A DNA stretch of 64,000 nucleotides from Psilocybe cubensis (GCA_017499595.2 CM039006.1:1922001-1986000); one strand, 5' to 3'. Shown: positions 4,864-40,030, counted from the first letter of the stretch. Made by a program: numbers and translations. Notes: generated by a model not told the origin, from the letters alone.

Positions 4864-4882
4864 ACGTCCTCTGCCCCCTCAT

Positions 4883-12868: not shown

Positions 12869-13186
12869 CACATAAGACAGTTTATTTATAACGTACATTA
12901 CCTAAGATTTAATAATAAGGATATTACGTGAGACACGGTGGATTTACTTCCGCTACCTAATTAGGAGATTAGCATGATGTACGTGTGATTTAGCCTGGCA
13001 AATCATAGCGTACATGACGTGCCATTTAGCGCTAAATGGAGCCGCCGGGTGGCCTGCGGGATCCGCGCGTCTACCTACACGGAAGAAACACGGGCCGGAA
13101 ATGAGCCGGACGGGTCCATTTGCATCCCGTGTATTGCAAGCAGACGGATCCGCTTGACCCGTGTTGTGCTGTCAGACGGACCCATT
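12869..13186 (+). repeat. Left terminal inverted repeat (318 bp, starts CACATAAGAC)
   Basis: Reverse complement of 39713-40030 except 12974 A versus G. Confidence 0.95.
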
Positions 13187-13264
13187 TGACCCGTATCTTC
13201 CCAGAGAGGGAGGGATATTTGAGAGGTATTGCGAATCAATGAGCACAAGGGCTCCAAAAATAAT

Positions 13265-14733
13265 TTATTCATCTCTACCGGTATACAAATGCTTTTCCAA
13301 ACTCGATTCAATCCCTGCCAGCCCAGCGTCAATTTCCTCCAGCGCATTATAAGTCAGAATTTCTGACTGCAGCTGATGCAGGCGGAGGTTCTTAAACGTT
13401 GTGACCTTGCTGTCATAACTATTGTCGCCGACGGAACTGTCAATTATTTGGTCGTATGTTGCCCGTAGCTGCTGCTCGGTATAATTCTAAAATAGTTGTC
13501 AGTATCTAGTGCTTGGTAATATCTAAGTGCATACATATAGAAAAGGAGGGTTAAAATATGCCGTCTGATCTGTCACATCCTCGAACTCAATGTCAGACTG
13601 GGTGGGAGGCGAACCGGGGTAGCCGCCCATGGGATCAAACCTGCCGTAGGTTCGAAAATAAGGGTTTTGAAGGAGCAGGTGGCATGCTTCAGGGGGTGGA
13701 GAATAGCGACCTTGCTTCCTCTCAGAGGAAATAGCTGGACGAGAGTCCATAATGATTTTGTCGACGACAGACGTGTATGAAACATGTGCTGCCATCAACG
13801 GCAGAGCCACATCATCCCGGATGACAGGCATAGGTGGAGGATCCAGGGTATCTGGAATAACAGGCATAGGGGGAGGAGCCAGGGTAGGTGGAATGACAGG
13901 CATAGGGGGAGGAGCTAGGTTATCTGGAATGATTGGCATTGGCGGCGGAGCCGTGTCGTTCCGGATGACAGGCATTGGCGGCGGAGCCGTGTCGTTCCGG
14001 ATGACAGGCATTGGCGGCGGAGCCGTGTCGTTCCGGATGACAGGCATTGGCGGCGGAGCCGTGTCATTCCGGATGACTGGCATAGGGGGTGGAGCCAGGT
14101 TAGCTGGAATGACAGGCATAGGGGGTGGAGCCAGGTTAGCTGGAATGACAGGCATAGGGGGTGGAGCCAGGTTAGCTGGAATGACAGGCATAGGGGGTGG
14201 AGCCAGGTTAGCTGGAATTACTGGCATTGGCGGCGGAGCCAGGTTAGCTGGAATTACTGGCATTGGCGGCGGAGCCAGGTCTTTCCGGATGACTGGCATA
14301 GGGGGCGGAGCCAGGTTAGATGAAATGACTGGCATAGGGGGAGGAGCCAGGTTATCTGGAATAACAGGCATAGGGGGTGGAGCCAGGTTATCTGGAATGA
14401 CTGGCATTGGCGGCGGAGCCAGGTCATCCGTCCTTGCTGTGCGTTTGCTTTCCTTAGAGTTGCTAATATTTGAAGACATTGCTGATGCTCAGAAATCAAT
14501 TAAAATTTACTTGAATTAATGCCATTAGTCTTACATTTTATAGGTTTTACGGGAGGAGGTTCCTTCAGTTTTTCAAGAAGCCTGGTAAGATTGTTGAGAC
14601 TGGTGTAGTCAATGGGGGAATTTTTGCTAGAGGTGGGAATAAAGTTGTAGGAGGACATACAGTCCAGAAAGTGCAACTGGGTGGGCTTGTTTATATATCT
14701 CACGGAATACAATACTATCCGAGGATTCTCCAT
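13265..14733 (-). CDS. KDZ cargo: proline-rich tandem-repeat protein of unknown function (multi-exon; start uncertain)
   Basis: ORFs 14500..14733 and 13523..14479 plus a last exon ...LEKHLYTGRDE* ending at 13265; 17 x 12-aa xxxAPPPMPVIx units. Confidence 0.6.
13817..14428 (-). repeat. Coding minisatellite, 17 x 36 bp
   Basis: Head-to-tail 36-nt units with blocks of sub-variants (ANL x5, NDT x4). Confidence 0.95.
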
Positions 14734-14962
14734 GACACGGAAATAGATTCACCCGTGTATCGAACTTAGCAACTTTTGCACAAACTGGATCTGGTGAAGA
14801 AATCACATGACTCAGATTGTACATGTTTGTGTATGGTTTTGTTTTGCGGGACCGCTTTTTTTTAGACTTTTTTTAGACTAACTCCAACCACGATCACCAC
14901 CCCACGTTCTACCGTGCCTCACCCATTAACGCGTCTTCCCCCCCAAAAAAAACGCTTTCCCA

Positions 14963-17534
14963 ATGGCCTCTTCATCTTCCACCACCGCCACCTTCGCCCA
15001 ACGCCTTGCTGACTGGGAAAAAACCTTTACAGAGTGCTACCGCAATGGCGAAAGCGCGTTCAACGCTCAGTTGGAGCAGCTCTACAGGGACTTGGTGAGT
15101 AATCAATATCCCTTGAGCATAAGACTTACTGAACAAAAAAAATTCATCCAAATAGGTTCCACTGTGTCAAGAACACGTCAGGGACGCGGCCAACTTCCGC
15201 CTCGTGGATTATGTCGCAAGCCCTGTCGTGTATTCATACAAGACCAGCCAGGGCAAGGACGGCAAGCAGGTAGCAAGGTTCGAGGTCGACTGGGCAAATT
15301 TGCATCATCAAGTCGCAAATTTCAAGGCATACCAGCAAGGCCAGGAGGCACAGAGGAAGAGGAGGGAGGAGGAAGAGCAAGAGAAGAGGAGGGAGAAGGA
15401 GGAGCAAGAGGAGGAGGAGAGGCAGAGGGTGGAGGAGAGGAGGAAGAGGGAGGTGAGGAGGAAGAGGGAGGAGAAGAAGAAGAGGGAGGAGGAAGAGGAG
15501 AGGCAGAGGGAGGAGGAGGAGGAGAGGCAGAGGGAGGAGGAAAGGAGGAAGAGGGAGGAAGAGAAGCAGAAGGTGGAGGAGAGGAGAAAGGATGAGAGGA
15601 GGAAGAGGGAGCAGGAGAGGAGGACCAGGGAGCAGGAGAAGCAGAAGGCGGAGGAGAGGAGGAAGAGGGAGCAGGAGCAGGAGCAGGAGCAGGAGACAGA
15701 CGAGGAGAGGAACAAGGAGGAGACGGAGAAGAGACGGGCCGAGAAGGGCAAGGGCAAGGCAGTCGAACCCCCGGTGGAAGACGGACCCGTGACAGACGCC
15801 CACAAAGACAAGGGCAAACGGAAAGCGGCGGACCCCGTGGAGTCCATTCAGTTGGCTCCAGCGGATTACAGGGGCCCACGGACAAAGAAGGGGGAAATTA
15901 TTCCCCACATTACCGCCTCCAACATGCCCGGTCACCCAGCGTACAGGGAGAAGCTGGAAAGATTGGCAAAGTCCAAGCAGGGGAAATTCAGGAGCAAGGC
16001 GATCATAGGAAGCCACACGAACGAAGACGCGGACGCGGACGTCGACGAGGACGACGAAGGCGATAACAAAGGGGCACCGCCTACCACCCCCACTGCCACC
16101 CCCACCCGGAAGATGCGCACGCGTTCCGTAAAGAAGGACACCGAGGACGATGTCCCCCCCATCAGGAAGGCGCGGTTGAGATCCCAGAAAGTGCGCCAGG
16201 TGCCAGAGGGGATGGTGGACATGGTGGAAAGGTGCACGGCATGCATCAAATTCAAGGTGCCATGCTATGTCAAGGGGGAGACAGGCACTGAGCCTCTCGT
16301 CCCCGTGAAGCACCAATCTTGCGAGTCTTGCAAGTCTCGCAAGATCCACTGCAGCTTCTACCCGGGGCGCAACACCTTCGTGGGTCAATTTTTGACGACG
16401 CCACTGGGAAGCTATGGGGAGGCGTTGAAGTTGGAGGAGGGAGAAGATGTTCCGGCGAAGGGGAAGGCCGGGGAAGGGTCGTTCCCCGAGGATGTGGGAG
16501 AACTGCTTGTGCAGCTCTTTGAGCGCCAAGGCAGAATCATGGAACGGCTGGACGGGTTATCCGCGTCCATGACGGCGATTAATGCACGGATTGCGACGTT
16601 TGCCGAGACAAACTTGGCGGTGGAGAACAGGATGAAGAGCATCGAGGACGGCATCCAAGAGGTGAAGGCCGAATGGACCATGGCCAAAGAACAAGTGGCA
16701 GGAAGCACCTCGCTTTCCGTCACGATGTTCAACGACATCACCAAGAGGATCAACCACGTCCGAGATGTGGTCGACGATTTGCTGGAGCAGGATGAACAAA
16801 GGAATCCCGCCCCCAAACAGGCAGCAGGACCCTCCAAGATGGAGGTCAAACAAGAATTGGGTCCGTCGCGGACCCGTGAACCCACCTCTGTGCCACAATC
16901 CCCAAGCGCACCACCACCGCCAGCACCCCTCCCTTCCCCACCTCCACCTCCAGCAGCACCCATTCTTCCTTCCCCTCCTCCACCACCGCCAGCACCTGTC
17001 CTCCCTTCCCCTCCCCCACCTCCACCCGCACCCGTCCTCCCTGCCGTGTCTGCGCCACCAACAGCGCTATTCTTGCCCGGTTCGACTCCGGAAGCGCCTT
17101 CGCCCCCCCCAGCTGGCCGACCCTCGCTCCCACCGGTACCGCCCATCCTTTCCCTGTCTCCACCACCCCCTCTCCCAGCTCCACGTCCTCGAAGTTTGAC
17201 GTCAAAGGCCGCACCGTTGTCAAAGGGTGCACCATCGTCAAAGGCCGCGCCATCGTCAAAGGCCGGCCCATCCTCAAAGGCTAAGCCATTGTCAAAGGCT
17301 AAGCCATCCTCCAAGGCTGGGCCATCCGGGAATGGACACTCATCGGAGTTGTCTGATCCCTCGGACAGCGACGAGGTTGAAATTGTGGAGGAGGAGGATG
17401 TTGAGATCGTGGCGTCCACGCTGCCCGCGTCGAACATAGCCACAAAGACAAGGGCTGGACGAAAGCGAAAGGCGGAAACGACTCTGGCTGAAGCATCGCG
17501 CTCGCCCAAAAAATCCAAGGCCCAAAAAAAGTAG
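14963..17534 (+). CDS. KDZ cargo: Zn(II)2Cys6-like protein with an E/R/K charged helix, coiled coil and Pro-rich tail (about 836 aa, 2 exons)
   Basis: Exon 14963-15094, GT-AG intron 15095-15155, exon 15156-17534 in frame; CTAC-x6-C-x18-CESC-x6-C; basic C-terminal NLS-like RKRK. Confidence 0.8.
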
Positions 17535-17812
17535 TGTATTTCAATTCTTTGTAACTTTTTTTTGGTCTCCTTTTTTGCCTGTCATATATTACATTGCTCA
17601 CATCCCTATACAATTTTTTCATCATTTGGACTGTATATAGTTTTTACTCTCATGTGCTCATCTGTTTTATACCTCTCCCAAAAAGTAGCACTTGATGATT
17701 TTTAATGAACCCCGCTTTCTGTTTTGATTTTGTGTGAAAACATGTTTGAGAAACATCAAGATAAGAATAAAAAGCATCACATTCAATAGGTATCATGAAT
17801 CTACTTCAACAG

Positions 17813-20123
17813 CTAGGCTTTCAAAGTCTTTTTTCTTTGTCTTTTACCTGCTACAGCAAGCAGACTTGCTTCCTGAAGTGCTAAGGCATCCGAAGTCACA
17901 TTCCTGCGGGCCCGTGTTTCATCCGTATCTGGACTTGTTACTGTCTCCACAAAGGCATCACAAGTCACGTCCCTGCCGGCCCGTGTATTATCCGTGTCTT
18001 GGGTTGTTCCTGTTTGGACTCCATCTTCTTCCACTGTGTCAAGTGGATCTGAGTAGGGCTTTGTTCTTTTCCTAGGTTGAATCCTTCTAGTTGGTTTTGG
18101 CTTAACTGGGGGGGGTACAGAACTCTCTTCATCGGGTCCGTCCATTTCCGCCGTTCCGACATATGGCTTTGTTCTTTTTCTTGGCATAATCTTTCTAGCT
18201 GGCTTGGGAGGCGCCTCCTCAACCTCTGGAGTTGGGCTGGATGATGGATTGACAATTGTTGGGCTGGATCTACTTGGTAGAGAGGGTGGCTCGCTAGATC
18301 TTGAAGGTGCGTCGGTAGGAGTCTCATCCGTCTCTGGCGTGACTTCAAATCTGGCAGTAGTGCGTGGCATCGCGGATGCCGGACTGCCCCGTCCATTATC
18401 AAACTCTGACAGATTGGATGATTCAGAGTCGCTTGAAGATTGGGTTTGAAGTCGTATAGCTTTTTGCCTCAGCCGACGTTTGGTTATGGCTGCAGGAGGT
18501 GGAGGTATCGGGTGGGCTTCTAGGCCGTCAAACAAGTTGGACGGATAGAGAGGTTCCATAATGTCATAGCCATTTCCAAAAACCTTTGAGAATTTAAAGG
18601 GGATGTCTCCTTGCGCTTGACGGTCCCTCCATAGCTTGAGAATTGCAGAAGTTGACTCCAGGCGGAGCCGGCTCGGATCCGTCACGGGGATTGAACTTGG
18701 CCAATACTCTGGATCAATCATTTCTGCAGAACGCCTTTCAAGAGCATCCCAAGGAACACTTGAACCAGGCCTATCCTTGGCTAAAGCTGTATACATAGTT
18801 AGCAAGTTTGTTGAGGACATAGACAAATTACACACCATAAACCTTGTTCATGTAAATTCTAATAATTGACTTTTGCGCATAAGCGACTTCTCTCCCAGTT
18901 GAGCCATAGATAGGACTAGGTATTATTGGAAATCCATTGCTGCTAAACTTGAGGGATTTTTCATGAAACGATGCATCTGGCAGTGCTGGATTGGCCACAC
19001 CCTTCTCTATTTCTGAAATGTGGACGAGGTATTGAACAAACGCTCTGCGAAAAGCGGCCAACTCGGATGGAAAGAGTTGCCCAAAGGAAGGAATTCTGAC
19101 ATCGTCGAGTGCTAGATCGCTTGTCTGGGTCCTTCAATGCCCATCAGTCAACATTAATACGGGCCAAATTATTCCGCCGTGAATGCTTACGGCGGAAACT
19201 TTATCCGCCGTAGGGTGTTTACGGCGGATAAAGTTTCCGCCGTAAGCATTCACGGCGGAACTTGTTCATGCCGTGTTTAACACTTACATTGAGTATTCGA
19301 TTTTACCCTCAATATCATAATGCCCCTCAAAGGTAATGGACCTCATACCCATTCTCTGCCACTTAAGTTTCTCCATTTGTCGAAGTATTTTTCTGCCTTG
19401 CCTGGCAGCAGTCCTGCAGATGTCAGATTGACGGCGGAAACAAGTTCCACCGACTCACTTTGCCTTCATTGATTTTGAAACACCTTTCTTATTCCATTCC
19501 TCGAGGATCTCCATGAACCTGTCCCGCTCCTCCTGAGTCAATCTGGCCTCAACCTGCTTACGTCCTTGTTGATAAAACTTCATCCAATCTTTACTTCCAC
19601 GAGCAGCATTCCCTGATAGAAGCGCAACCTCGGAGTCAATCTCTGCCGACTTCTCCTCACGGAATACCGTCTGAAAGGTTATACGGGAGTTCAATCCTTC
19701 CAATTTTACACCAATTCGATTTGACGCATGGTTTCTAAACCAATTAAAAATTCGCTATTGTGATGGTTTATGTGTGTAACAAAATTTTCAAAGAAACAAC
19801 GAGCTCACATGCTTCTTCACCTTCCATTCTTTGTGTAGTTGCTTATCTTCCTTCCTAGCACGTCTAGAGTATCTGTGATCCCATGTAGCTTGCAGCTCAG
19901 GTATGACAGTGTTCTGTATGTAGTCTGCTTTGGATGACTTTGATGTATCTTTGTAGGGCTGTACATGCTTTTTCAACACGCGCATTTCCTTTGTGGTCCA
20001 TATATTTGATTCTTCCGGCGGAAAGTCACCCTCCGCCGTCTGTCCGCTTCTGGGTCCGTTGTGGGTTGTGGCATTTGCGGTGGAAGGAAGCGGATCCGCG
20101 TCGGGGGATGCATTGGTGGGCAT
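17813..20123 (-). CDS. KDZ cargo: multi-exon HMG-box-like/helical DNA-binding protein
   Basis: Successive minus-strand ORFs 19788..20123, 19455..19703, 18828..19061, 17813..18838 joined by short introns; RIFNWFRN helix, LTQEERDRFMEILEEWNKKG HMG-like helix, VPW...IDPEYWP...DPSRL block. The domain call is inference. Confidence 0.6.
19172..19260. repeat. Perfect 41-bp inverted repeat with a 7-nt loop inside a predicted intron
   Basis: Arms 19172-19212 and 19220-19260 are exact reverse complements. Confidence 0.95.
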
Positions 20124-21002
20124 AATTGCAGCGATGTAACAAGTAGCTTATCGATGAGTATCTGTGTGATCTAGTCAAATCTCACGTCATACGGAGATAA
20201 AATAAGCTTCCGATCATACTAAATGAATGATGTGATGTCATATTTTTCCCAATCAGGTAATCCTGCTTCATCGTCGGCCACGATGATCAAAGCATGCTGG
20301 TCGCTGTCACATACATTGACCTCATGATTTTGCAATAGTTCCCTCTGCACTCAATCAATAAACATGAAATTTTGTAAACATTTAGCGCTTTATATAAAGA
20401 TAATCTTACAAGGTTTTAAATTCTTGTTAGATGGCTGTAAAGATACAGAAACACAAAATTCAAATTCACGTCTTCTCACCCAAAACTTGTGAAACCCAAA
20501 ACGGCAGTCATCTCAGAGACCATGAGAGGTATTCAAATGCATAATTTTTTTCAAAAAATATAATGATCCCAGTGAGCTCATTTTGACACATTTTCTAGTA
20601 TATTGAGAATATCTCCTTAAATACGAGGATTCACATTCTACAAAAAATGTCATTCGGTAGCTATTAAAAATATCTTTCATATGATATACGCCGGAGGAAT
20701 GAGGGGCCAGCCAGTGAAAAGATATTTCAAAAACACTCCAAAGTGTGGTTCTGAAAGGGTCGTTCTGCATCATATTGTACATTTATGATGGGATCACGTC
20801 CATTTTGTGCATCTCTGGATTAAGTTTTGTTCATAACATTTCACTCACTCATCCAAATATGCTGCAAGATAGATCATATGAAAGCTATTTTTCTCCTCTT
20901 TAAAACGGCATAATTGAGGGAAATTTATCTACAGAAATAAACATGTTATACTACATTTAGATCTGCGCTCACAGGCTGTCAGACTCTTTGTTTCCAACAT
21001 CC

Positions 21003-23900: not shown

Positions 23901-25529
23901 TGAAGATCGAAGTTTGTGATTGGTTATAAACTATATGTAATCCAACAAACACAAACCCCAGGGAAAGAGTGGTCCAGACTGGATAGGACGAAACCTTCTC
24001 CTAAGTTTCTTAAGGGAGGACGCTGCCTAGGATTTAAGTAGATTAGGATGGTGTGGATTGTGAAGGGTAACGAAAGCGAAATAGTAAGATGAGGATAACC
24101 GGGTCGTCTGGGTACGATAGTAAATAAGCCTTCCGAAAATGGGATGGAACCGTGGAATTGGATGGCGGGTGTATATAGAAAGCGTGAAGAAGATGCGTAG
24201 AATGCATATGAGAAATCAATAAATGTGAATCTTAGAGGGGTTGTCTGAAGTGAGTGGGGAACGTTCCGAGGGGAGATAAGAAGATGAATAGGAGTCGGAA
24301 TGTCGTTAACGGGCTGAATCTTGAAGAATGGTGAAAGTGTCTTTAAATTGACAATCTTTCTGAAGCTTGGAATGAAGCTATACGTCGCAGGAGTATTGAC
24401 TGAATCGAGGATGAAAGACTAAGTCTGTCTCGAATGAAATCGCTCCAGATGAGTTGACGGAGGGAAAGGATGTCTTGAATACACTCCTAACGGCGATGGT
24501 TGGAAGGTGTAGAAAGAGTAGGAGCGGTAACGGAGTGAATGGAGGAGAGGAAGTAGGGAAGTACTGGAGGTCTGGATAGAAGTTGGATATTCAACGCTGA
24601 GAAGAAGAGGCGTTGGATGAGGAGGATGACTGGTCTTGGATGAAATCCTCTCTTAATGGAAAGCGAGATGACTTCGGATGAATGGAAGTAAACTTGGTCT
24701 CGACGGAGGGTGGAACTGATGACTGAATTGGACTTGAGTTTGGGCTTGGCTTGAACTTGAGCTTGGAATTGAAATGAATCGATGTGGATTGACTTGAAAT
24801 TGACTTGACTTGGATGAAAATTGACTTGCTTTGAAGAAAGTGGGGACTGGGTGTAACTTTCCTGTCATTTCGTGTAATTCTACTACAGCTTTTATACTAA
24901 AAGCTACGTGAACGAAATACCAATCTAAGCTACTGAAAACCGAGTCATATACTGTACAAAGTGTCAAGAATAAGGCTACGCAAGTGTAACAATAAGCAAG
25001 AACAATAAGACATGTCAATATCGACACGACGACAGATAAGAAATGAATAGGATGAGTAAGAAAGAAGTGTATGACGAAGGTGAATGGTAATACAGATTAG
25101 ATAAAAGAAGCAAGGATGAGTCAGAAAGCATAGAAGATTGGTAAGACAAAGACAATAAAAGCGCAACAGACAATAGAAAAGATATAAATAAACACAAAAG
25201 GATGAGTAAGACAAACCAAAAATAAGTTGGAATGAGTAATCCGCAGCCTGACGCTGAGTAAGACCATTGAATTGATAAAAATAGAGTTGACAGTCCGGCT
25301 GTGCAAGGCAGTGTAGAAAGCTATGCAGTTTGATGGTTGACTGATCCGTCGCATAGCCTTGATGATCTGATGAAGTGACATGATCCGGAATAACGTGGCT
25401 CCCATGTGACAAGTGTTGATAAAATAAGATGTGTGGATGACTTATGGAAAGAATGACTGCTTGGGTTGAGGGCGTCGTGTGTAGATCCAAAATGAACATC
25501 TCATCTCCAATCAGGATTGGGGTATGATA
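23901..25529 (-). repeat. 3' LTR of Gypsy B
   Basis: Matches 33754-35382 with 9 substitutions seen; preceded on the minus strand by the purine-rich GGGACGGA (PPT-like). Confidence 0.95.
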
Positions 25530-25587
25530 TCCGTCCCAAACTTGAGAAATCAACCGTCCCCGGTTGCGGAAGGAAGGGGGGGATAGA

Positions 25588-29658: not shown

Positions 29659-29673
29659 GCACCGTCCAGATAG

Positions 29674-32600
29674 TCAGTACAATGTGTTGGCGTCCAAGGG
29701 ATGTTCTTCCGTGTTGTTGATACCAAAGGGACTTTCTTCTCCATACTGATAGTACCATTCGTTTCCATCATCCATATTTGAAGCTCGCGATTCGTGCATT
29801 GTGCTGGTTATGGGAAGAGGTAAAAGGGAAGAATTGTGGTCGACCTCTTTGCCATTTTGGGCGATTAGTAGCTCTTCTTCATCCTCGTTTAATGGCTCCT
29901 TCGGACTGTCGTGGGCTACCCGCAGAGGATGTACCAAAGCTTTCGGGCCTCGATGATGCTCGTCTACATTTGCGGTGACCGTCGATGATACATGTGTTTC
30001 TTGGTGAATCATAATCGAAAGAGGCGTCTCTGGAAGAGCAGAACTTCGGGAATGAGGTTGGGGAATAGAAGAAGCGTTTTGAGAGCGAATGGATTGGGGA
30101 ATAAAATGAGTCCAGGATGCTGAGTGACATTGGCCCATTGGATAAGCACTGACTGAAGCAGAGTGGTTAGATTGAGACGAGATACCAGTGCGACTGAAGT
30201 GTAGAATAGTTGGAGTCGTCGTCAAGTTTATATGGCTGTCTCTCTGCGGATAAACATAATGGACAAAGGCCGTTCCTGTTCGGTCAGAAACAACACGAGT
30301 AGGAGAAGAATAAGTGGCGTCGTATAGAATCCAGTCTTCAAAGCGCAAGTGGGGGTTGAGCATTCCCATAGCCGTAAGGTGAGTATTGTCAGAAGAGAAT
30401 TGAATAGCTTCTACTTCGGGTGAGCTCAATTGTTCCATTTCTGGATCGTCGTCAGCTGGTTCTTCTTCATGTGGGTCGTTATTGTCTGAAGTGTGGGATT
30501 TGATGGACGGATTGACAGATGGTGATGGTGGCTGTTCTATTTGTGGGGCCTCATGTGTGGAATCGTAAGGTGGTGTGGAAATATGACCATAATGGGCTGT
30601 CGCATTGAATTGAGAAGTTCCCGAGTCATCTTGATACATTGAGTCATAATCGGAAGCGTAGAGACCGTGAGAGGAGTCCTGAGTCGAGTCATGTTCGCAG
30701 TTGGAGTCAGAGAAAGAGGGTGCATCTTGTGAAGTGGATAAGTCCTCATTTGGGTTAGCAGATTCGTCCCGATTCAGAGATTGTTGCCTAGTAAGGATAG
30801 ATAACTCGATCATGGAAGGGGTAGGTGATGGATAGCGAAGGTCGTCCAATAATTCACCGGGTTCTAGATCTTCTTCAATTTCACCTTCTTCGGCATCCGG
30901 ATTAGCTAAGGAGAGGTCGTTGTGTGCTAACATTGTGTGGGGGGTCTTGTCGTAAATGGTATCCGTGAAGTAACGCCGGTCGTGCTGAGTATCAGGTGTC
31001 ACAAGGAATTTCTGCTCACGTGTAGGATCTTTGACGTCATAGAAGGCAATGAAGGTCCCTTCGGGTCGTTCTAGAATGTCCACATAGTTGTCACGGGTCC
31101 ATGGACGTCCCAAGAGTATATCAAACTGGACTTTGTCGGATACATAGCAATGAGCACGCGTCCTGACTGTACCAATATCAAGTTGAACATTTCCAACGAA
31201 TCCAAGCATGTGGGATTTGCCGCCATGAATATCGACCATAACAATAGTATTCCGGCTGTCCATCGGCAACTTGACAATCTTCTTCCAAGCCTGTTCGCTT
31301 AGAATGTTCTGCGTAGATCCACTGTCAATCAAGGCATTGAGTTCGTGACCATTACACATTAATGTGATTCGAAGAAGGGGCTCGTGAGCGCGAAGGGATT
31401 CGACTGAATTGGTCTCGTGCATGTATTGAACAGGTACGTCCTTTTCGGCACTGCGAATGATGTCTAGAACTTCCTTATCGGAAAGCTTTAAGTTGCCGTT
31501 TGCCAATGAAGCTTTGAATTCGTCGACAGTAAGGGTCTTGCCTTTGATGCTGTTGATAAGAAGGGTCCTAAGGTCCTTTGAAACTCCAAGTAGCTCGCCG
31601 AACGTCGCATTAACGGGTTGATTAAGGCATCGTCTGAGAATGGCCATAGTGTCGACAGTTTGGGATATGTCAGAGACACGTTTCTGAGGTGCTGCACGTG
31701 GCTTGGTAACTGATTTGCCTCGTTCTAGACTAGGAGTGACATCTTCCATGATTTGATCATCATCGGCCGGATCAAAAACCTCGTGTCGTTGGGCAGTCTC
31801 GGGATGTTCCGTTGGATTTGCCCTAATCGGGACATTGGGTTGAGCTTGTTTGACAGGAATTGATGGATTCATTTCGGCAGAAGGTTGATTAATTGACGGG
31901 ATTGGGACAGGTTGAATGGAAGTGGAGCTAGGCACGTTGTTCGGCAATCCAGAGTTAGCCGGACGTTTAAGAATAGATGGGATCTGAGAAGAATCCTTAG
32001 CTTTACTCATTTCCGCTCGCTTCCCTTTCAGATACGCGGGTTCCGGAGGTACCACAGCGTCCATGACCTGTTTGCGTGCAGCACGTGTTCGCTTTTCAGT
32101 TGGGATTTGATTACCAGGACCTGCCAGCGTAAACTCAAACTCGTCTTCTCCATCCCAGGTTCCAATGTCGTCCTCTTCTTCTTCTGCAACCATGGCTCTG
32201 TAGTTCTTGAACATCTGACCATAATATGCTTCGGATACGGCTATGCTTGTGGTAGCAACTTGAGGAGGAGGAGGAGGAGGAGGCTGTTGTTGACGAAGGA
32301 CTGCTTGTGCGATTGACTCTCCATTCTGGCGAATAATGCGGGATCCATCAGGGAAGACAACTCGATTGCTACTGTCTCTGGAGATGAGCTTGCGGTTTGT
32401 AAGATCAATGAGCGTCGGGCAGTTGTTGATTCCATGGCCTTGTTGGTGGCAACCATAGCAGATGATCTCGGATGTGGACTGACGTGGTGCTCGTGGTGCT
32501 GGAGGTGCTGACTGACTTGCGATTGGGACTGGCTGAGCTGGCTGTGCACTTGGATTCATAATGGCCGGAGCAATGAGCATGTTAGCAAGAGCGGGTTCCA

Positions 32601-33558
32601 ACTTGATGGCGCGAAGATAATAAATGGCGTACGAAGAATCATGAATGGTGAGCTTCGACATCTGCTTGATCAAGTTCTCCACTTCGTCGTCCTTGTGCGC
32701 TTGCTTCTCTTCCTTGTCTAGATCCTGAAAAATGCGCTTGGTCTCTTCCGGGGGATTGTATGGACGTTCACGGGCATCGCGTGTCTCAATGTTAGGAAAC
32801 ATCTCCTGTAAGTACTTCTTGATCTCGTCAAAGACTGATGAGCGCTCTGGATACGAATCCTTTGGAGGAATAAGAGACGTGAAGGGGCGTGCAGAAGGAT
32901 TGTCAAAGATTCCAACGTCAAAGCGGTCTCGTTTAAAGATGATTTCAACTGCCTTGGTGACGTCTTCAATGGAAAAAGGTGAGGAGAGATCGATATGAGG
33001 ATTAAAGACCATGATCTTGCTTTCGAGCGCAGGTCGGAGGGATTCATTGATTCCTAGCCAGAAGTATTGATTGTATTCCGTCTTGGATATCTTGTTGTTG
33101 TTGAGAAGCCAACCAGCAATGCGAATGTATTGCTTCTGATACTCGCGGAAATCGTCGAGAGAGCGCATAGAAAGATTGGAGTGTTGGAAAGCATAAGCAC
33201 GAAGAGTACTCAACGTGAACTTCTGCGTCGTCCTAGCATGGTCAAAGATTTTGAGCATATCAGTCTTGAGTCGTTCCCATTGCTTGGCATGGTGGCTGGG
33301 TAAACCTTCAATGATTTCTCTGCTCTCTTGGTTGCAGCATTGAACCATGTATCGTACTTTGTCATTGTCGAGAGTGACATTGTACTGATCAAAAATGCGG
33401 TCGCAGTGATCCAAGAAGTTCTTGACGTCGACGTAAGATCCAGTGAATTTTGGAGCAGCACTAGATTTAGGAACAGGCATATCGACAGGAGTACGTTGGA
33501 TGATGGTAGTAGCCATAGTGGGAGTAGAGGATGGAAGCGGATTGCCAGAATCAGTCAT
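29674..33558 (-). CDS. gag: Gypsy Gag-protease, 1294 aa
   Basis: APKFTG gag start, CCHC knuckle, ALIDSGS and ILLGRPW protease motifs; long Ser/Pro/acidic tail. Confidence 0.93.
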   Translation of the reverse strand: MTDSGNPLPSSTPTMATTIIQRTPVDMPVPKSSAAPKFTGSYVDVKNFLDHCDRIFDQYNVTLDNDKVRYMVQCCNQESREIIEGLPSHHAKQWERLKTDMLKIFDHARTTQKFTLSTLRAYAFQHSNLSMRSLDDFREYQKQYIRIAGWLLNNNKISKTEYNQYFWLGINESLRPALESKIMVFNPHIDLSSPFSIEDVTKAVEIIFKRDRFDVGIFDNPSARPFTSLIPPKDSYPERSSVFDEIKKYLQEMFPNIETRDARERPYNPPEETKRIFQDLDKEEKQAHKDDEVENLIKQMSKLTIHDSSYAIYYLRAIKLEPALANMLIAPAIMNPSAQPAQPVPIASQSAPPAPRAPRQSTSEIICYGCHQQGHGINNCPTLIDLTNRKLISRDSSNRVVFPDGSRIIRQNGESIAQAVLRQQQPPPPPPPQVATTSIAVSEAYYGQMFKNYRAMVAEEEEDDIGTWDGEDEFEFTLAGPGNQIPTEKRTRAARKQVMDAVVPPEPAYLKGKRAEMSKAKDSSQIPSILKRPANSGLPNNVPSSTSIQPVPIPSINQPSAEMNPSIPVKQAQPNVPIRANPTEHPETAQRHEVFDPADDDQIMEDVTPSLERGKSVTKPRAAPQKRVSDISQTVDTMAILRRCLNQPVNATFGELLGVSKDLRTLLINSIKGKTLTVDEFKASLANGNLKLSDKEVLDIIRSAEKDVPVQYMHETNSVESLRAHEPLLRITLMCNGHELNALIDSGSTQNILSEQAWKKIVKLPMDSRNTIVMVDIHGGKSHMLGFVGNVQLDIGTVRTRAHCYVSDKVQFDILLGRPWTRDNYVDILERPEGTFIAFYDVKDPTREQKFLVTPDTQHDRRYFTDTIYDKTPHTMLAHNDLSLANPDAEEGEIEEDLEPGELLDDLRYPSPTPSMIELSILTRQQSLNRDESANPNEDLSTSQDAPSFSDSNCEHDSTQDSSHGLYASDYDSMYQDDSGTSQFNATAHYGHISTPPYDSTHEAPQIEQPPSPSVNPSIKSHTSDNNDPHEEEPADDDPEMEQLSSPEVEAIQFSSDNTHLTAMGMLNPHLRFEDWILYDATYSSPTRVVSDRTGTAFVHYVYPQRDSHINLTTTPTILHFSRTGISSQSNHSASVSAYPMGQCHSASWTHFIPQSIRSQNASSIPQPHSRSSALPETPLSIMIHQETHVSSTVTANVDEHHRGPKALVHPLRVAHDSPKEPLNEDEEELLIAQNGKEVDHNSSLLPLPITSTMHESRASNMDDGNEWYYQYGEESPFGINNTEEHPLDANTLY

Positions 33559-33733
33559 AGCGTAAACCAGTTACAGAGTCAGAAAGTGTTGCCTAGAATT
33601 GTTGCCTAGAGTTGCCTAGAAAATAGACCAGCGAAGCGAAGTAACCTGTAAAGAAAAAGAGTCGAAATGGATGGAATGGAAGTGATAAAGTGGTAGATTG
33701 CTGTGTTCCTAATACAAAATCCTAATTAACCCT

Positions 33734-33751
33734 CCCTCGCGGTGGGCTCCA
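33734..33751 (-). other. Primer-binding site of Gypsy B
   Basis: TGGAGCCCACCGCGAG 2 nt downstream of the 5' LTR. Confidence 0.65.
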
Positions 33752-33753
33752 GA

Positions 33754-35382
33754 TGAAGATCGAAGTTTGTGATTGGTTATAAACTATATGTAATCCAACA
33801 AACACAAACCCCAGGGAAAGAGTGGTCCAGACTGGATAGGACGAAACCTTCTCCTAAGTTTCTTAAGGGAGGACGCTGCCTAGGATTTAAGTAGATTAGG
33901 ATGGTGTGGATTGTGAAGGGTAACGAAAGCGAAATAGTAAGATGAGGATAACCGGGTCGTCTGGGTACGATAGTAAATAAGCCTTCCGAAAATGGGATGG
34001 AACCGTGGAATTGGATGGCGGGTGTATATGGAAAGCGTGAAGAAGATGCGTAGAATGCGTATGAGAAATCAATAAATGTGAATCTTAGAGGGGTTGTCTG
34101 AAGTGAGTGGGGAACGTTCCGAGGGGAGATAAGAAGATGACTAGGAGTCGGAATGTCGTTAACGGGCTGAATCTTGAAGAATGGTGAAAGTGTCTTTAAA
34201 TTGACAATCTTTCTGAAGCTTGGAATGAAGCTATACATCGCAGGAGTATTGACTGAATCGAGGATGAAAGACTAAGTCTGTCTCGAATGAAATCGCTCCA
34301 GATGAGTTGACGGAGGGAAAGGATGTCTTGAATACACTCCTAACGGCGATGGTTGGAAGGTGTAGAAAGAGTAGGAGCGGTGACGGAGTGAATGGAGGAG
34401 AGGAAGTAGGGAAGTACTGGAGGTCTGGATAGAAGTTGGATATTCAACGCTGAGAAGAAGAGGCGTTGGATGAGGAGGATGACTGGTCTTGGATGAAATC
34501 CTCTCTTAATGGAAAGCGAGATGACTTCGGATGAATGGAAGTAAACTTGGTCTCGACGGAGGGTGGAACTGATGACTGAATTGGACTTGGGTTTGGGCTT
34601 GGCTTGAACTTGAGCTTGGAATTGAAATGAATCGATGTGGATTGACTTGAAATTGACTTGACTTGGATGAAAATTGACTTGCTTTGAAGAAAGTGGGGAC
34701 TGGGTGTAACTTTCCTGTCATTTTGTGTAATTCTACTACAGCTTTTATACTAAAAGCTACGTGAACGAAATACCAATCTAAGCTACTGAAAACCGAGTCA
34801 TATACTGTACAAAGTGTCAAGAATGAGGCTACGCAAGTGTAACAATAAGCAAGAACAATAAGACATGTCAATATCGACACGACGACAGATAAGAAATGAA
34901 TAGGATGAGTAAGAAAGAAGTGTATGACGAAGGTGAATGGTAATACAGATTAGATAAAAGAAGCAAGGATGAGTCAGAAAGCATAGAAGATTGGTAAGAC
35001 AAAGACAATAAAAGCGCAACAGACAATAGAAAAGATATAAATAAACACAAAAGGATGAGTAAGACAAACCAAAAATAAGTTGGAATGAGTAATCCGCAGC
35101 CTGACGCTGAGTAAGACCATTGAATTGATAAAAATAGAGTTGACAGTCCGGCTGTGCAAGGCAGTGTAGAAAGCTATGCAGTTTGATGGTTGACTGATCC
35201 GTCGCATAGCCTTGATGATCTGATGAAGTGACATGATCCGGAATAACGTGGCTCCCATGTGACAAGTGTTGATAAGATAAGATGTGTGGATGACTTATGG
35301 AAAGAATGACTGCTTGGGTTGAGGGCGTCGTGTGTAGATCCAAAATGAACATCTCATCTCCAATCAGGATTGGGGTATGATA
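33754..35382 (-). repeat. 5' LTR of Gypsy B
   Basis: 1629 bp; differs from the copy A LTR at 1 position seen (34724). Confidence 0.95.
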
Positions 35383-35386
35383 CCGC

Positions 35387-36411
35387 GCAGAAACTTGACT
35401 TGGTCAATAAACGTCGCTCCATGCGGACCCGCGTTGAAGCCTTCTGTCGATCCGCTATGACCTTCATGGGCGAAGATGTCTTGGAGGATATTCAAGGGGA
35501 CATCGCTCCCATACTTGACTATGAAGTCAGTGACAACGACGATCCTGATCTTGGAAATGTCAACATTACCCGCGCGGATCCGGAACGACAGCCGCTTCCG
35601 TTTCCCTCCGCCGTCAAACAAGATTTCTTTGACGGCCTTGACGCGGGAACAAACCTCATTTTAAAAGGGCTTCGCAAACTTGAACTTCAAATAAGACATG
35701 GCCACGCAGAGGACTGTCTGGAAGCGGTCCGGTCAGCCTTGATCCAGCTTTCTTGGCAGTATAAATATCAGGTTCGGACCGCCGACTCCGTCTATATGGG
35801 GACTCGTGCTTGGGATGGCGTCAAGCTTTTGAATGCTTCCTGGAAATTGCACCGGCGACTCTACAACACAAACCGTCAGAAGATGATCTATTTATCTGCT
35901 GGCGTGCGAGACGAGGATAATATTCGGAAACAATATCCCATTCTGCAAGTCCATGATTGCAAGCATAGTAATGCCGTGTCGGATCCGAACATTCACGGAG
36001 GAAGCTCGGACCGTCTAAGTTGGATTTGGAGATCCCGTCAGGGCCTGGACAATGATAATCAATTATACGTTAATGAGTGTGAGTACTGCTATTTGTATTT
36101 CTAATTTTTTTCTCAAGGGCTTCTTAGTCTTTAGGCTAAACTGGCTCCGCGCGCGAGCTCAGAGGAATAGATGGCAAGAGGAGCTGGCCTTGACAAAAAA
36201 GGAAATGGAATGGACTGTCAGATTTTATGTGTATATGGCAAAGACATGGCGTGCACGGCATGATTTTGTTCCTGACAGGTTAGTTGGTCACAGGGCAAAT
36301 GCTCAAAAGCAGATTGCCATGTGGAATGATCTGGGGCGGGCCGCGGATAAGGTCTTCCGTCAAATTAACCCGGAGTATCCGTCCGTGTGGAGATTTATAA
36401 TTACAGATTAA
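35387..36411 (+). CDS. KDZ transposase, 3' part
   Basis: Removing Gypsy B restores GKHPST-A-QKLDLVNKRR in frame; C-terminal LSWIWR and WLRARAQRNRWQEE...EM motifs typical of this family. Confidence 0.88.
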
Positions 36412-36455
36412 CCAGTTCTTTGAACATTCTTGTTGTATCCCATCTCGTTGAATTC

Positions 36456-38080
36456 ATGCACTTACCGCGGCTTTTTAAACCTCCTGTCGAGGACGAACAT
36501 CATCTCCTTACCTATGATGAGCGACGTGCTCTGGCCAAAGTTCATGTCCATATTTGTGGTGCACGGATCCGTGCCGGATACCGTTTGTTCATTGCAAACG
36601 GAGACTCTGTTTCCTCCGTGCGTCGCCAAAAATGGATGTATTTGCTCGACCTGGAGGTGGTAAGACAGTAATTTTGAACGATTATATCTTGTATTGAGAA
36701 CTGGTCGTCAGGCTATACTGCTGAGAGTACTCGGATACTGCTATGTCAATGGATTCCAAGTCGATATTCCATTTTTTATATCAGAAATTCTCAATCAGAG
36801 CGTACATGCCGTTTTGAACCGAACTCCCCACCATCGAGCTGTTCTATTTGAATCTCTAAATCAAAGCTGGTCAGCATGGGAAGATGATGAAATTTTAAAT
36901 CAGACCAAGAGCTGGGGATATTGGTGGAGGGACGGATTTGCTGAAGGCGATGAGTGGCAAGTTGCCTTTGTTACCGTTGAATCGCAAGCAAGAGAATTTT
37001 GGAACAAGGTATGTTTTTTTATTGCTGTGGATTATATCTGATTTGCGTCCTTCCCACCAGGTGGTTCTGCCTGAATACCAACAAGAGGTACTCCGGCTAA
37101 ATAATCAGAGGAAAGAAGCTAAGGAGGGCGCAAGTTCATCTACCTCTGGGCCTCCAAGAAATCAGGAAAACAATCCCAAGGGCAAGGGAAAGGCGGCTGA
37201 ACGGACATCCGTCCCCACCTCGGGGAAGCACGGATCCGCGTTGACGGGAAAGCACGGCTCCGCGTTTTCACCGCCCACGGGGAAACCCAATCCGCCGACC
37301 CGTGTTGCAAACACGCGGGATGAAACATCCCCAATTGCAATTTCTGACCACAGACCGCCCTACTGTCCCCGCTGCGGTCAGCCTATCCTAACGGGCGTAA
37401 TGAGGGAGTTGGCTCACCTGCGCCGGAATGTGGCGGACAAAATGAAAAATGCCCATAAAGCAGTGACTACTTCTTCGGCCGCCTTGGGCAGATATTCTGT
37501 ATTGGAGAAGATGTGGATTGACTCTAAGGAGCACCCGTTCTCTAACGGCAAGGGGCTTTCAGCCAAATACAAATTTCAGCATCCCGTTCACCCTTCTCCT
37601 GACAGTTGGGGCGCTATAACGGCTCAAGCCTGGTCCTTCGAGGTCTCAAAGCTCAAAGTCGCTTTATTTTACATCAACGACATTTTTTATTCTTTTATTG
37701 CCGTCAAGGAACTACCTTTTCATCCACTCTGGTATCATTCGCCACCCTCCAACACTGCAAATATTCATCTCCCAACAGATACTCTGCCTACTCCCGGTTC
37801 CGTCAGCCCTCCGTCAAATGCACACACCAACAATGCCTTCCTTTTTAACGCAAGGTCAAGACCTGTTTTCCCGGGAGAAGAGGATGATATTGATAGTACG
37901 TCCGATACCACTGAATCCTCTACACCAGCTACGTTTTTAGAGCATCTCGCACAGGACTTTGAAGAGGAGGCGGATGAGGAGTCTTCCGCCGGTGATACGA
38001 CGGAGGAGTCAGATGCTTCCGGTAACTCGGAAGAGCTTAGCGAGGACGTGTCGGAAACACCCTGGGATGAGGAATCTTAG
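36456..38080 (+). CDS. KDZ cargo: multi-exon protein of unknown function with a CPRC motif and acidic tail (start uncertain)
   Basis: Consecutive + strand ORFs 36387..36671, 36694..37041, 36938..38080 separated by GT-AG intron-like gaps. Confidence 0.55.
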
Positions 38081-38225
38081 TTGCCCACCTCTCGCACAGG
38101 ACATCGAAGAGGAGGCGGATGATGCCTTTTCCGCCGGTAATACGACGGCGGAGTCCGATGATTCCGGTAACCTTGGAAGAGCTCAGCGCGGGCGCGTCGG
38201 AAACACCCTGGGACAGAGAATTCTG
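37945..38225 (+). repeat. Diverged tandem duplication, period 145 bp
   Basis: TCTCGCACAGGAC...GGAAACACCCTGGGA at 37945 and 38090. Confidence 0.85.
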
Positions 38226-38307
38226 GTTGTTCTGTAGCTTTCGTACCGTTTTGTTTTGGAAATATAAAAAAATCTTCCCCAAACCCAACTTCCAAGTCAA
38301 AAACTGA

Positions 38308-39587
38308 TCATATTTCAAAATCAAAAGTGTTGGTGGCCGGTAAATTTGCAAAAAGATCGTACGTAGTAGACCATCCCGCCTCTTGGACTCCCAGCTCTTT
38401 AAATACATTCCTACGCATGTAATAGACTATGACTGCCCTATCTCCCTCGCACACCGCGCCGTGTTGAAGCAACCTGCCGGTAATTGCAACAAGGGTCATG
38501 GGATCATACTTGTACCGAAGTCCAAGGCCAGGAAGCTCAAGCCGTCCGTGTTCACCCTTCCCAAGTGGCATCAAAAAATCGTACCATGAGTAGCATGACC
38601 CATTATCCCGATGGTACGGTGTATCTCGGTTGCTGATGGCGGTCATGACTCCAAAGGGCGAACTCCATATTGTGAGAATTTGCTTCAATATTTCGGCCTT
38701 ATGGACGAACTCCGGTTCCGCAGCAAGCCGTTGAAGAAATTTTATTCCCGCCCGGTACTGCTCGGGGTGTATAATGCTCAAGATGGCTCCCAGCAAAGCC
38801 GAAGATGTCATCATGTCTCGTATAAACTCCTGTCCAATAGGATTACACAAGTCCAAGAAGACCTCAAGCGGGTTGGACGTCTGAGGAAAATATGAGGCAG
38901 TATAATACTTAGCAAACAAGTTTCTCACCTCATGGCCTTGCTGAAACCATGCCGGGGAAAAGTTAAGATTTCCAGGTTGAAGCCAACCTGGCTCATGTCG
39001 AAAGTAACTGTCATTGACCCTCCAGCTTGTGGCCAAAGGTGCCGCCTTGTGAATCATTGTTTCAATATCCCGTAATGAATTCCACACACTCTCCTGTTAC
39101 TCTTTAGAACGCATAATATAGGAATTAATCGGTCCGTTTCTAAAACTCACCACCCTTGTCTCTGACAAAATACCTGGCAGGTACCACACCAATATGTTGC
39201 CTGCACTATCGATTACAGTTCCGGGCAGGGTTTGGTACTGTAACGTGGAATGCACCGGAGGAAACTGGTCTTTCAGGCGAGCCTCAACGGCAGAATTCTG
39301 ACCCGTGCAACGTGCGCTGAGATGGGTCAAATATTCTTCTGCATCCCACGTCGTATATTCTGCCATTCACACATTATTTAATCTCAATTTTCAAAGCTTA
39401 TTGATTGCATACCTTGATTTTCAAATGCCTGCAAAATCACCTCCACAGCTAGATTGCACTCAAACATGGTCTCAGCACTGAAGTTTTCCCGGATTTGATT
39501 AGGCAGTTCTGCATGCCAAAGACGACTAGCTATCTTTGCCTTCATGTAGTTTGAGAGGGATTGGGTTAGCTCAAAGGCATAATCCAT
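38308..39587 (-). CDS. TET/JBP family 2-oxoglutarate/Fe(II) dioxygenase (4 predicted exons)
   Basis: D..GNILVWYLPG, SPAWFQQGH, IIHPEQY, SNRDTPYHRD (HxD), LELPGLG, LLQHG (distal His), GDRAVIVYYMR (2OG-binding Arg): the pattern of basidiomycete TET/JBP proteins. Confidence 0.92.
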
Positions 39588-39712
39588 ACTATCAGGGTAT
39601 GTGGAAAGGAATTTGCTGCCAGTATAATCTATACACCTTATTACATATATTAACGGTCATCCAATGTACGATTCAAGGCGGATATTTGTCGGAATACAGA
39701 AGCGGATGGATG

Positions 39713-40030
39713 AATGGGTCCGTCTGACAGCACAACACGGGTCAAGCGGATCCGTCTGCTTGCAATACACGGGATGCAAATGGACCCGTCCGGCTCATTT
39801 CCGGCCCGTGTTTCTTCCGTGTAGGTAGACGCGCGGATCCCGCAGGCCACCCGGCGGCTCCATTTAGCGCTAAATGGCACGTCATGTACGCTATGATTTG
39901 CCAGGCTAAATCACACGTACATCACGCTAATCTCCTAATTAGGTAGCGGAAGTAAATCCACCGTGTCTCACGTAATATCCTTATTATTAAATCTTAGGTA
40001 ATGTACGTTATAAATAAACTGTCTTATGTG
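39713..40030 (-). repeat. Right terminal inverted repeat (318 bp)
   Basis: Reverse complement of 12869-13186; followed by TSD GTTACAA. Confidence 0.95.

Follow-up and report, generated by a model that had tools for sequence, protein, structure and literature searches.

Iyer et al. are said to have described, in 2014, DNA transposons of the Agaricomycetes that belong to the Kyakuja group and carry a TET gene (TET+ Kyakuja). Here we analyse a relative of these elements in a 64-kb stretch of Psilocybe cubensis DNA (GCA_017499595.2, CM039006.1:1922001-1986000; 64,000 nucleotides, referred to as the window), where it occupies positions 12869-40030. Its body is interspersed with the heptamer CGGCGGA, frequently arranged as inverted dyads, and one of its genes (gene B) encodes a protein with a conserved cluster of six cysteines (Cys6). 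TET-carrying Kyakuja elements are already known; the dyad system suggests sequence-specific self-recognition by a transposon, for which VANC of the plant transposon VANDAL21 and TnpA of En/Spm are the closest described counterparts.

The likeness to VANC and VANDAL21 (Hosaka et al. 2017, PMC5735166; this and the other papers are cited for the passages drawn on here) is manifold: one transposon family is densely set with a short motif that is scarce outside it, the motifs reside in tandem repeats, both within introns and upstream of genes that belong to the element, the number of repeats varies between copies, related families differ in motif, and sequence change is faster in the accessory protein than in the transposase. 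Unlike VANC, the system in the window belongs to another kingdom, another transposon superfamily and another kind of protein, here with a Cys6 cluster, and Pfam found no match to DUF1985 or DUF287, which represent VANC homology, in any scanned open reading frame (ORF) of the element. The VANDAL21 motif is the same-orientation word YAGTATTAY, whereas that of the window is a CpG-rich inverted dyad; the window element carries a TET enzyme of its own, which VANDALs lack; and binding and hypomethylation by VANC have been demonstrated (PMC5735166), whereas for the window element both would be predictions. A comparable resemblance exists to TnpA of En/Spm (see also the preprint of Sasaki et al. 2026), reportedly an element-encoded regulator other than the transposase that recognises many short direct and inverted repeats in its own element and counteracts its methylation; gene B would be its predicted counterpart. 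There is no sequence relation between the window element and TnpA, and, unlike in both VANC and TnpA, the effector enzyme (TET) may be on board. The 12-bp motifs of TnpA are said to be concentrated in the subterminal few hundred bp, whereas the sites in the window start 1.07 kb inward and span the body.

With regard to the Kyakuja elements themselves, Kojima 2025 (PMC12730594) gives a 7-bp target site duplication (TSD) and 5'-CA..TG-3' termini for the TET+ members, and a TSD of 8 bp for Zisupton. In the window, the TSD GTTACAA (7 bp; 12862-12868 on the left, 40031-40037 on the right) can be read directly on both sides of element ends reading CACATAAG...CTTATGTG. The left terminal inverted repeat (TIR) of 318 bp (12869-13186, plus strand) begins with CA and is 100% complementary to the right one (39713-40030, minus strand), which was delimited by TIR pairing and finishes in TG. 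The sequence between these ends is one DNA transposon with a TIR-to-TIR span of 27,162 bp, and removal of a nested 11,481-bp long terminal repeat (LTR) retrotransposon with its 5-bp TSD leaves 15,676 bp, in line with the 15.7-kb element of an earlier reading of this DNA (hereafter the original prediction). A Pfam search of the larger ORFs returned three families, CxC2 (PF18803), KDZ (PF18758) and Tet_JBP (PF12851), all of them inside the TIRs, as the original prediction of a KDZ transposon with TET had it. We provisionally assign the element to the Kyakuja-type KDZ transposons with a TET/JBP gene, rather than to Zisupton or Dileera, because its TSD measures 7 bp; a KDZ gene with an N-terminal CxC cluster, an internal AG-type-like Tet_JBP gene, the 7-bp TSD and the CA..TG ends in combination match the TET+ Kyakuja of Kojima 2025. 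The perfect 318-bp TIRs set it apart from Kyakuja-1/2_LB of Laccaria, which have no TIRs according to the same source. A term search of that paper returned zero occurrences of 'zinc', 'subterminal' and 'Psilocybe', and the passages of its main text considered here contain neither an accessory Cys6 gene nor an internal motif. The extra ORFs of KDZ transposons have so far been described, in the part of PMC11343200 used here, as free of predicted domains, and our search of openly available main texts yielded no report of internal dyads, a Cys6 accessory gene or long TIRs in the TET+ Kyakuja lineage, and no paper in which KDZ or Kyakuja elements are connected to Zn2Cys6 or to an internal motif.

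CGGCGGA, or its complement TCCGCCG, has 29 exact matches in the window, all of them within the element (13943-38152): 22 lie outside an array of 36-bp repeats and 7 inside it (13943-14417). The original prediction had counted about 20 copies plus the 7 in the repeats; every copy it had located is present, and two that it overlooked, at 15826 and 37291, bring the former number to 22. Its remark that the host genes are free of the word also holds, with 0 copies in 36.8 kb of flanks, part of which is Copia DNA, and the nested retrotransposon, which serves as an internal control, likewise has 0 copies in 11.5 kb and is outside the proposed recognition system. Shuffling of the window gave 4.02 +/- 2.09 copies with a maximum of 10, so that none of 100 shuffles reached 29, and under Markov backgrounds built from the element itself the expectation was 1.45, 2.63 and 5.08 copies for orders 1, 2 and 3, with CGGCGGA ranking first of 6189 heptamers under all three. 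The k-mer enrichment analysis recommended along with the original prediction, carried out here against the element's own background and window shuffles, hence places the word above both. Not all copies are independent: seven are units of the array, six lie in an 89-bp perfect palindrome, and the rest belong partly to duplications of 33, ~36 and 145 bp. After copies with similar flanks or near neighbours had been merged into one site, 14 independent sites remained against 2.63 expected (P = 7.7e-7), compared to P = 3e-5 to 3e-4 for the best collapsed heptamers of four controls (three flank stretches and the retrotransposon). The excess is real, though weaker than the raw count suggests. As a separate observation, the CpG observed/expected ratio of 0.81 in the element is unremarkable next to 0.87-0.92 elsewhere, and a mutational process of the repeat-induced point mutation (RIP) type was dropped as a candidate.

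In context, the copies take the form ACGGCGGA(A/T) followed 7-10 nt on by TCCG, frequently extended to TCCGCCG. The spacing between CGGA and TCCG peaks at N7-N12, with 28 such pairs in the element versus 1 in the other 48 kb, and 30 of the 32 CGGA-N6..13-TCCG dyads of the entire window fall within the element. Nine of the 14 independent sites have a partner TCCG at N7-10, against an expectation of 2.6% for each site (binomial P = 1.1e-11). Expressed in CGG triplets the dyad is CGG-N9..12-CCG, and each holds 3-4 CpG. The inverted pairs 9-10 nt apart noted in the original prediction are thus real in their paired, inverted form, and their spacing is better given as CGGA-N7..12-TCCG. Because all spacers differ in sequence, the dyad fits a protein-binding site better than a mobile unit, and a small palindromic mobile unit was discarded as a candidate on the same grounds; judged from its sequence pattern, the dyad appears as the signature of a putative two-headed protein-binding site rather than of a duplicated unit.

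The sites are distributed over most of the body. Seven lie in the 36-bp array (13727-14518), which comprises ~17-22 units with the core GGCGGAGCC; six of these seven units contain the full dyad. One site each occurs in an exon of gene B (15826) and in exon 5 of gene C (18147), six in gene C intron 3 (19173-19259), one in its intron 2 (19432) and two in its exon 1 (20016, 20032). The ORFs of the KDZ gene contribute four (21682, 21715, 22375, 22435), all in segments that are missing from, or replaced in, the contig of a diverged paralogue, and a tandem repeat (22832-22944) that separates the two large KDZ ORFs contributes two (22840, 22913). In the right part of the element, copies at 35607 and 37291 are followed by three (37985, 38130, 38146) that form dyads in a ~145-bp tandem duplication (37945-38229). 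A concentration in two long introns, as originally proposed, is thus partly right: gene C intron 3, which at 156 nt is the long one beside introns of 54, 45 and 49 nt, holds six copies, whereas intron 2 has a single copy, two are in the repeat between the large KDZ ORFs, and the remainder are in ORFs. The six copies of intron 3 are embedded in a perfect palindrome (19172-19260) with 41-nt arms, a 7-nt loop and about three 32-bp units. Contigs of four DNA sequencing runs were compared over 11.3 kb of the element; three of the four runs, labelled as other organisms, hold near-identical copies of it, and other copies have variants of the palindrome that are 63 bp shorter (run X1, joints 19171>19235 and 19188>19252). 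No CGGCGGA is present in the TIRs, in the TET gene or within 1.07 kb of either element end; the outermost copies are 1,075 bp (left) and ~1,880 bp (right) from the ends, so that the sites cover 1.07-13.8 kb of the 15.7-kb body. The TIRs instead each end in three ~32-bp sub-repeats with ACGG(A/G)(T/C)CC and GACCCGT (period-32 repeat at 13126-13194). As the original prediction had observed, they are rich in the former word, with 3 copies per TIR; 14 more occur elsewhere in the element and 4 in the remaining 48 kb of the window. This sub-repeat is a more ordinary candidate for end-binding by the transposase. With respect to the array itself, it is open in four frames (ORFs 13523-14488, minus strand, and 13707-14519, plus strand); the minus frame would encode a proline-rich 12-residue repeat and itself runs on for ~200 nt past the array, and its product has no exact database record. 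The array may be a gene, a series of binding sites or both.

Gene B (14963-17534, plus strand; ~830 aa with one small intron at 15098-15158) was modelled, like the other genes, by mapping P. cubensis proteins back onto the window, in this case P0001, an annotated protein of 838 aa. Its product consists of an N-terminal domain, a stretch rich in E, R and K, the Cys6 cluster CX2CX6CX18CX2CX6C (16233-16352, plus strand), a long helix, and a tail that is rich in proline and then in serine and lysine. The cluster appears Zn2Cys6-like with its halves in swapped order. The six cysteines and one lysine are invariant in all seven sequences compared, namely the window protein, three P. cubensis paralogues, P0007 of Flammula alnicola and the products of two metagenomic loci (L043 and L044, see below). 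When 1.84 billion representatives were searched exhaustively with phmmer, the Cys6-plus-helix fragment retrieved 5 relatives only; Flammula P0007 (756 aa) is 30% identical to gene B, shares its layout and has kept the six cysteines. It scores 21.7 bits with the Pfam profile Zn_clus (PF00172), but over profile positions 1-15 only, and the match of the window protein is likewise to half of the domain. Among 177,635 PDB sequences the top match was the Zn2Cys6 protein LAC9 (E = 0.055), the two halves again aligning in swapped order. An AlphaFold2 (AF2) model of the 70-aa Cys6 region (mean pLDDT 59.7) placed a short helix after each CX2C, and that of a 247-aa fragment predicted long helices (residues 113-215, pLDDT ~78) next to a poor cysteine part; the alignment behind the folding was thin, at 7 rows. 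In a Foldseek search with the 70-aa model, 18 of the 20 matches listed were Zn2Cys6 DNA-binding domains (E 0.25-8, TM 0.31-0.48), including Pho7, Put3, Hap1, LAC9, Leu3, Gal4, Ppr1 and AlcR, and nothing was found at E <= 0.001. The protein-cluster atlas offered unnamed Basidiomycota clusters only, with a score of 0.83 in the range of chance. The zinc-cluster protein of the original prediction thus is a real cysteine-rich ORF with six conserved cysteines, whereas all of its own signals for Zn2Cys6 stay below threshold; its alternative of an HMG-like protein was not borne out, as Pfam scans of the element's larger ORFs contain no HMG box. Every weak similarity points to Zn2Cys6, and on the strength of these sequence comparisons we call the product Zn2Cys6-like without filing it as a member of the family.

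Zn2Cys6 domains read CGG triplets, and their dimers read paired triplets with an orientation and spacing specific to each factor. In Gal4 a dimerising element follows the cluster, and the long helix of gene B would fit likewise. As in the Zn2Cys6 factors (Gal4, LAC9, Put3, Ppr1, Hap1 and Leu3; PF00172), gene B has two CX2CX6C units in which each CX2C is predicted to be followed by a short helix, a conserved lysine in the basic unit, a downstream helix that possibly dimerises, and CGG-containing paired candidate targets. Unlike in these factors, its basic unit comes second instead of first, the linker counts 18 residues (8 in L043 and L044), the Pfam score falls short of the cutoff, and the gene is transposon-encoded and devoid of the fungal-specific transcription-factor middle domain.

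Scanning metagenomes with a TET alignment yielded 53 loci (272,787 bp), in many of which the KDZ and TET genes point towards each other, as in the window. CGGCGGA itself is rare in them, with at most 2 copies in each of the 32 tabulated loci of at least 3 kb and 14 across all 53. When the collapsed heptamer test was applied to every locus of at least 5 kb, L043 was a clear outlier with CGGCCGA (23 independent sites versus 4.1 expected, P = 1e-10), L019 (CGGGCCA, 8 versus 0.77, P = 1.5e-6) and L024 (CCGACGG, 8 versus 0.98, P = 9e-6) were marginal, and the result for L053 (CGTCGTC, 6 versus 0.22, P = 1.2e-7) was trivial, stemming from a cluster of acidic repeats with ACGACGA/CGTCGTC within ~500 bp; the top words of the remaining loci were within the control range. 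The 32 CGGCCGA copies of L043 mostly form the palindrome TCGGCCGA, have unrelated flanks and are spread over 19.8 kb. L044, which is 74% identical to L043 over the aligned DNA (73.3% in another comparison), has 10 copies, mostly within stretches that have no alignment to L043, indicating that the word is kept while the surrounding sequence turns over. L037 and L038 contain the same word in tandem arrays upstream of TET. In L015 and L024, which are 85% identical, their two words are kept at 9 of 13 sites. A word-by-locus matrix showed each motif to be high only in its own family.

L043 and L044 also have a gene of the same make-up as gene B, with an N-terminal domain, an acidic stretch, a Cys6 cluster of canonical spacing (CX2CX6CX8CX2CX7C) and a coiled coil, whose six cysteines and one lysine align with those of the window protein. 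Between the two loci the cluster is ~71% identical (22 of 31 residues), compared to 51% for the whole protein. In six-frame translations of the window and the 53 loci the Cys6 pattern was found only in gene B and in these two genes; with gene B as the tblastn query the 53 loci gave no match, and the two genes were recognised by ORF reading and a search for the cysteine pattern. Gene B is therefore beyond the reach of tblastn between the window and L043, while the transposases of both are 40-58% identical. The expectation, raised with the original prediction, that related families should each have their own motif along with their own cluster gene is thus borne out by one distant family, that of L043 and L044, with (T)CGGCCGA and a Cys6 gene of its own; the families of L019 and L024 are marginal, and about five of eight families show no word above control in the portion sampled.

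Our preferred reading is that the dyads are binding sites for a dimer of the element's own Cys6 protein, and thus a private recognition system resembling VANC or TnpA, to which we give slightly less than an even chance. It is the simplest reading because two distant Kyakuja families each combine TET, a fast-evolving protein with a Cys6 cluster and a helix, and a dispersed, symmetric CGG-containing word of their own. We infer that the gene B product binds the dyad and does so as a dimer: the CGGCGGA words would be half-sites of ACGGCGGA-N7-10-TCCG(CCG), the private address label of one Kyakuja-type family, and gene B would be the likeliest reader, with two CGG-reading heads dimerised via the long helix so as to match the two halves of the dyad. 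The sites may have spread through the body by local tandem and palindromic duplication and settled where change is tolerated, that is, in introns, linker segments of ORFs and the repeat array near one end, while TIRs and the TET gene are avoided. Binding would then mark all copies of the own family and no other DNA, and the likely benefit would be that the family stays transcribed and unmethylated, either through direct activation of the element's genes, through protection from methylation, or by bringing in its own TET. A good deal more doubtful is the wider statement that CGG dyads specific to each family, and scattered through the element, are read by a Zn2Cys6-like dimer that the transposon encodes and that evolves fast, and that this dimer aims the element's TET (or activation) at its own family only.

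Several points weigh against binding of the dyads by gene B. The collapsed P of 7.7e-7 is only ~40-400 times beyond the best control words, CGGCGGA was picked after inspection of the data, and a spacer range of 7-10 nt is loose for a rigid dimer. A clear motif was obtained in 2 of ~8 related families and a marginal one in 2; the other loci end short of the position of the B gene and are hence uninformative on it, so that the pairing of motif and B gene is based on two families, and the contigs of L043 and L044 come without host flanks, which places the element restriction of CGGCCGA beyond these data. For the protein, the Zn_clus scores of the window fragment (15.1 bits) and of P0001 (11.5 bits) are below the cutoff of 21 bits, the Cys6 ORF of L043 has no Pfam match whatsoever, the linker of 18 residues is outside the canonical range of 5-12 (CX2CX6CX5-12CX2CX6-8C), confidence is low in both AF2 models (mean pLDDT ~60), and neither Pfam, PDB sequences nor Foldseek gave a Zn2Cys6 signal above the curated or significance threshold for the window protein. 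Furthermore, the half-site CGGA is common to the dyads and the TIR word CGGATCCG, which would allow for a single reader, possibly the transposase. Finally, the maps of oxidised methylcytosine (oxi-mC) of Coprinopsis and Laccaria cover retrotransposons too, and Kojima 2025 (PMC12730594) suggests, in the passages considered, that AG-type TETs are not target-specific.

The transposase deserves closer attention as a reader, since it might contact the dyads via its CxC zinc clusters and use them as internal or subterminal sites for the transposition complex or for self-activation. It does have a CxC2 cysteine cluster, the CGGA/ACGG half-site recurs in the internal dyads and in the TIR words ACGGATCCG and ACGGACCC, motif-bearing tandem arrays lie near the element end (13727-14518) and upstream of TET in L037 and L038, and a plant transposase is described in the accessible part of a 2026 preprint (10.64898/2026.08.24.746577) as activating transcription sequence-specifically. 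However, the terminal 1.07 kb and the TIRs are free of CGGCGGA, the TIRs have a different ~32-bp sub-repeat of their own, and a transposase that is 40-58% identical between window and L043 despite different motifs is a poor fit for a change in specificity, which makes this explanation unlikely in our eyes. A host Zn2Cys6 transcription factor could also be the reader, the dyads being enhancers gathered by the element, for instance to tie its expression to a host condition, with gene B otherwise employed. Fungi generally have many such factors, and CGG-N9..12-CCG resembles sites of the Gal4/Put3/LAC9 class. This is nonetheless improbable: the 48 kb of non-element DNA in the window, part of it other transposons, contain no copy of the word and 2 of the 32 dyads, the sites are in introns and ORFs across the body and not in promoters, and a distant family has both a different motif and a different Cys6 gene.

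Equally slim is the chance that the excess is without function and arose when a few CG-rich seeds were duplicated locally, together with low-complexity coding repeats. Fifteen of the 29 copies can be put down to local duplications, the 36-bp array has several open frames, and in L041, L032, L006 and L053 the top words come from just one tandem array or from acidic repeats in coding sequence; yet 14 independent sites with unrelated flanks remain, duplication does not explain the partner half-site at nine of them, the 23 sites of L043 have unrelated flanks as well, and L015 and L024 retain 9 of 13 sites of CpG-containing words where ~4 would be retained by chance (estimated as 0.85 to the seventh power). 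The chain of events originally predicted, in which the Cys6 protein, bound to the dyad, would draw in TET by physical contact so that the element's own family is demethylated, is contained within our preferred reading and shares all of its support. In addition, the TET gene looks intact, with the metal-binding H-x-D and the distal histidine conserved, TET and a Cys6 gene travel together in two distant families, the dyads are CpG-rich, and Kojima 2025 (PMC12730594) argues in the passages at hand that each TET should serve its own family. The same passages, however, read the published oxi-mC maps as non-specific, the TET gene and its surrounding 1.9 kb are without a dyad, and contact between B and TET is a conjectured step. 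We consider the recruitment of TET by gene B doubtful, although conceivable.

What makes binding of the dyads by gene B attractive is that a CpG-rich, family-specific dyad together with a protein resembling a CGG reader is a concrete and testable candidate mechanism by which a transposon TET could favour its own family. If TET targeting were true, this would be the first sequence-targeted, transposon-encoded system of active DNA demethylation and an independently arisen fungal counterpart of plant VANC, and it would supply a compact DNA-binding module with its motif for targeted epigenome editing in fungi. Should only the motif and its binding hold, they would still represent a new class of accessory gene and a new cis-element for KDZ transposons.

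The remaining genes of the element are closest, among database proteins, to hypothetical proteins of P. cubensis (84-99% identity, also for the genes above). Gene C (17813-20123, minus strand; model P0020) encodes 668 aa in 5 exons without a known domain. Gene C, gene E and the array ORF were without Pfam matches, a homeodomain included, though the string RIFNWFRNH of gene C looks homeodomain-like. Weak relatives of gene C adjoin KDZ genes in L040 (9110-9361) and L043 (430-1557) as found by tblastn, and its look-alikes in the protein-cluster atlas are unnamed Basidiomycota clusters with up to 264 members; Kyakuja elements may carry gene C as a core accessory gene. The KDZ transposase gene is on the plus strand, its 5' part (20961-23900) carrying the CxC2 (21302-22615, 77.1 bits) and KDZ (22746-23849, 127.8 bits) domains. 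The stretch at 35387-38080, also on the plus strand, holds its 3' part, up to ~36411, and then the ORFs of gene E (36664-38080) with an acidic serine-rich tail; an ORF of similar make-up occurs in L043. The 3' segments KDZ_c and KDZ_d match many of the 53 metagenomic loci. The TET/JBP dioxygenase gene (38308-39587, minus strand; model P0008) has 2 exons and its Tet_JBP domain at 38308-39096 (66.1 bits), with the H-x-D and distal histidine columns invariant in the alignment.

The nested element is a young Gypsy-type LTR retrotransposon (23901-35381, minus strand; 11,481 bp) with LTRs of 1628 bp that differ by 9 mismatches and with the 5-bp TSD ACCGC. It interrupts a coding exon of the KDZ gene, as the reading frame continues across the empty site, and copies without it exist, run X1 contigs joining 23900 to the sequence after 35387. 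Its gag-pol region is divided between two long ORFs on the minus strand (29674-33570 and 25588-29673).

Some features of the metagenomic loci stand on their own. L043 has an internal duplication (10739-11482/12421-13050 and 13648-13932/12013-12297) that spans an acidic serine-rich ORF and the last KDZ block, and at its far end another coiled-coil ORF (19205-19591), which is of the gene B type but diverged; parts of two elements are probably present in this contig. Long tandem arrays are present in L041 (11211-11824), with the short palindromic cores TGCTAGCA and AACGCGTT, in L038 (~840-2970, upstream of TET), in L006 (19-889) and in L042 (7826-8742), where ACTACAA occurs in both orientations, and these arrays may be counterparts of the 36-bp array of the window. 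In the window itself, a 1769-aa ORF in the left flank (4865-10174, plus strand) is a Copia-type polyprotein (RVT_2, gag_pre-integrs and Pol_BBD), so that the neighbourhood of the element is transposon-rich and the motif-free control DNA is itself partly transposon.

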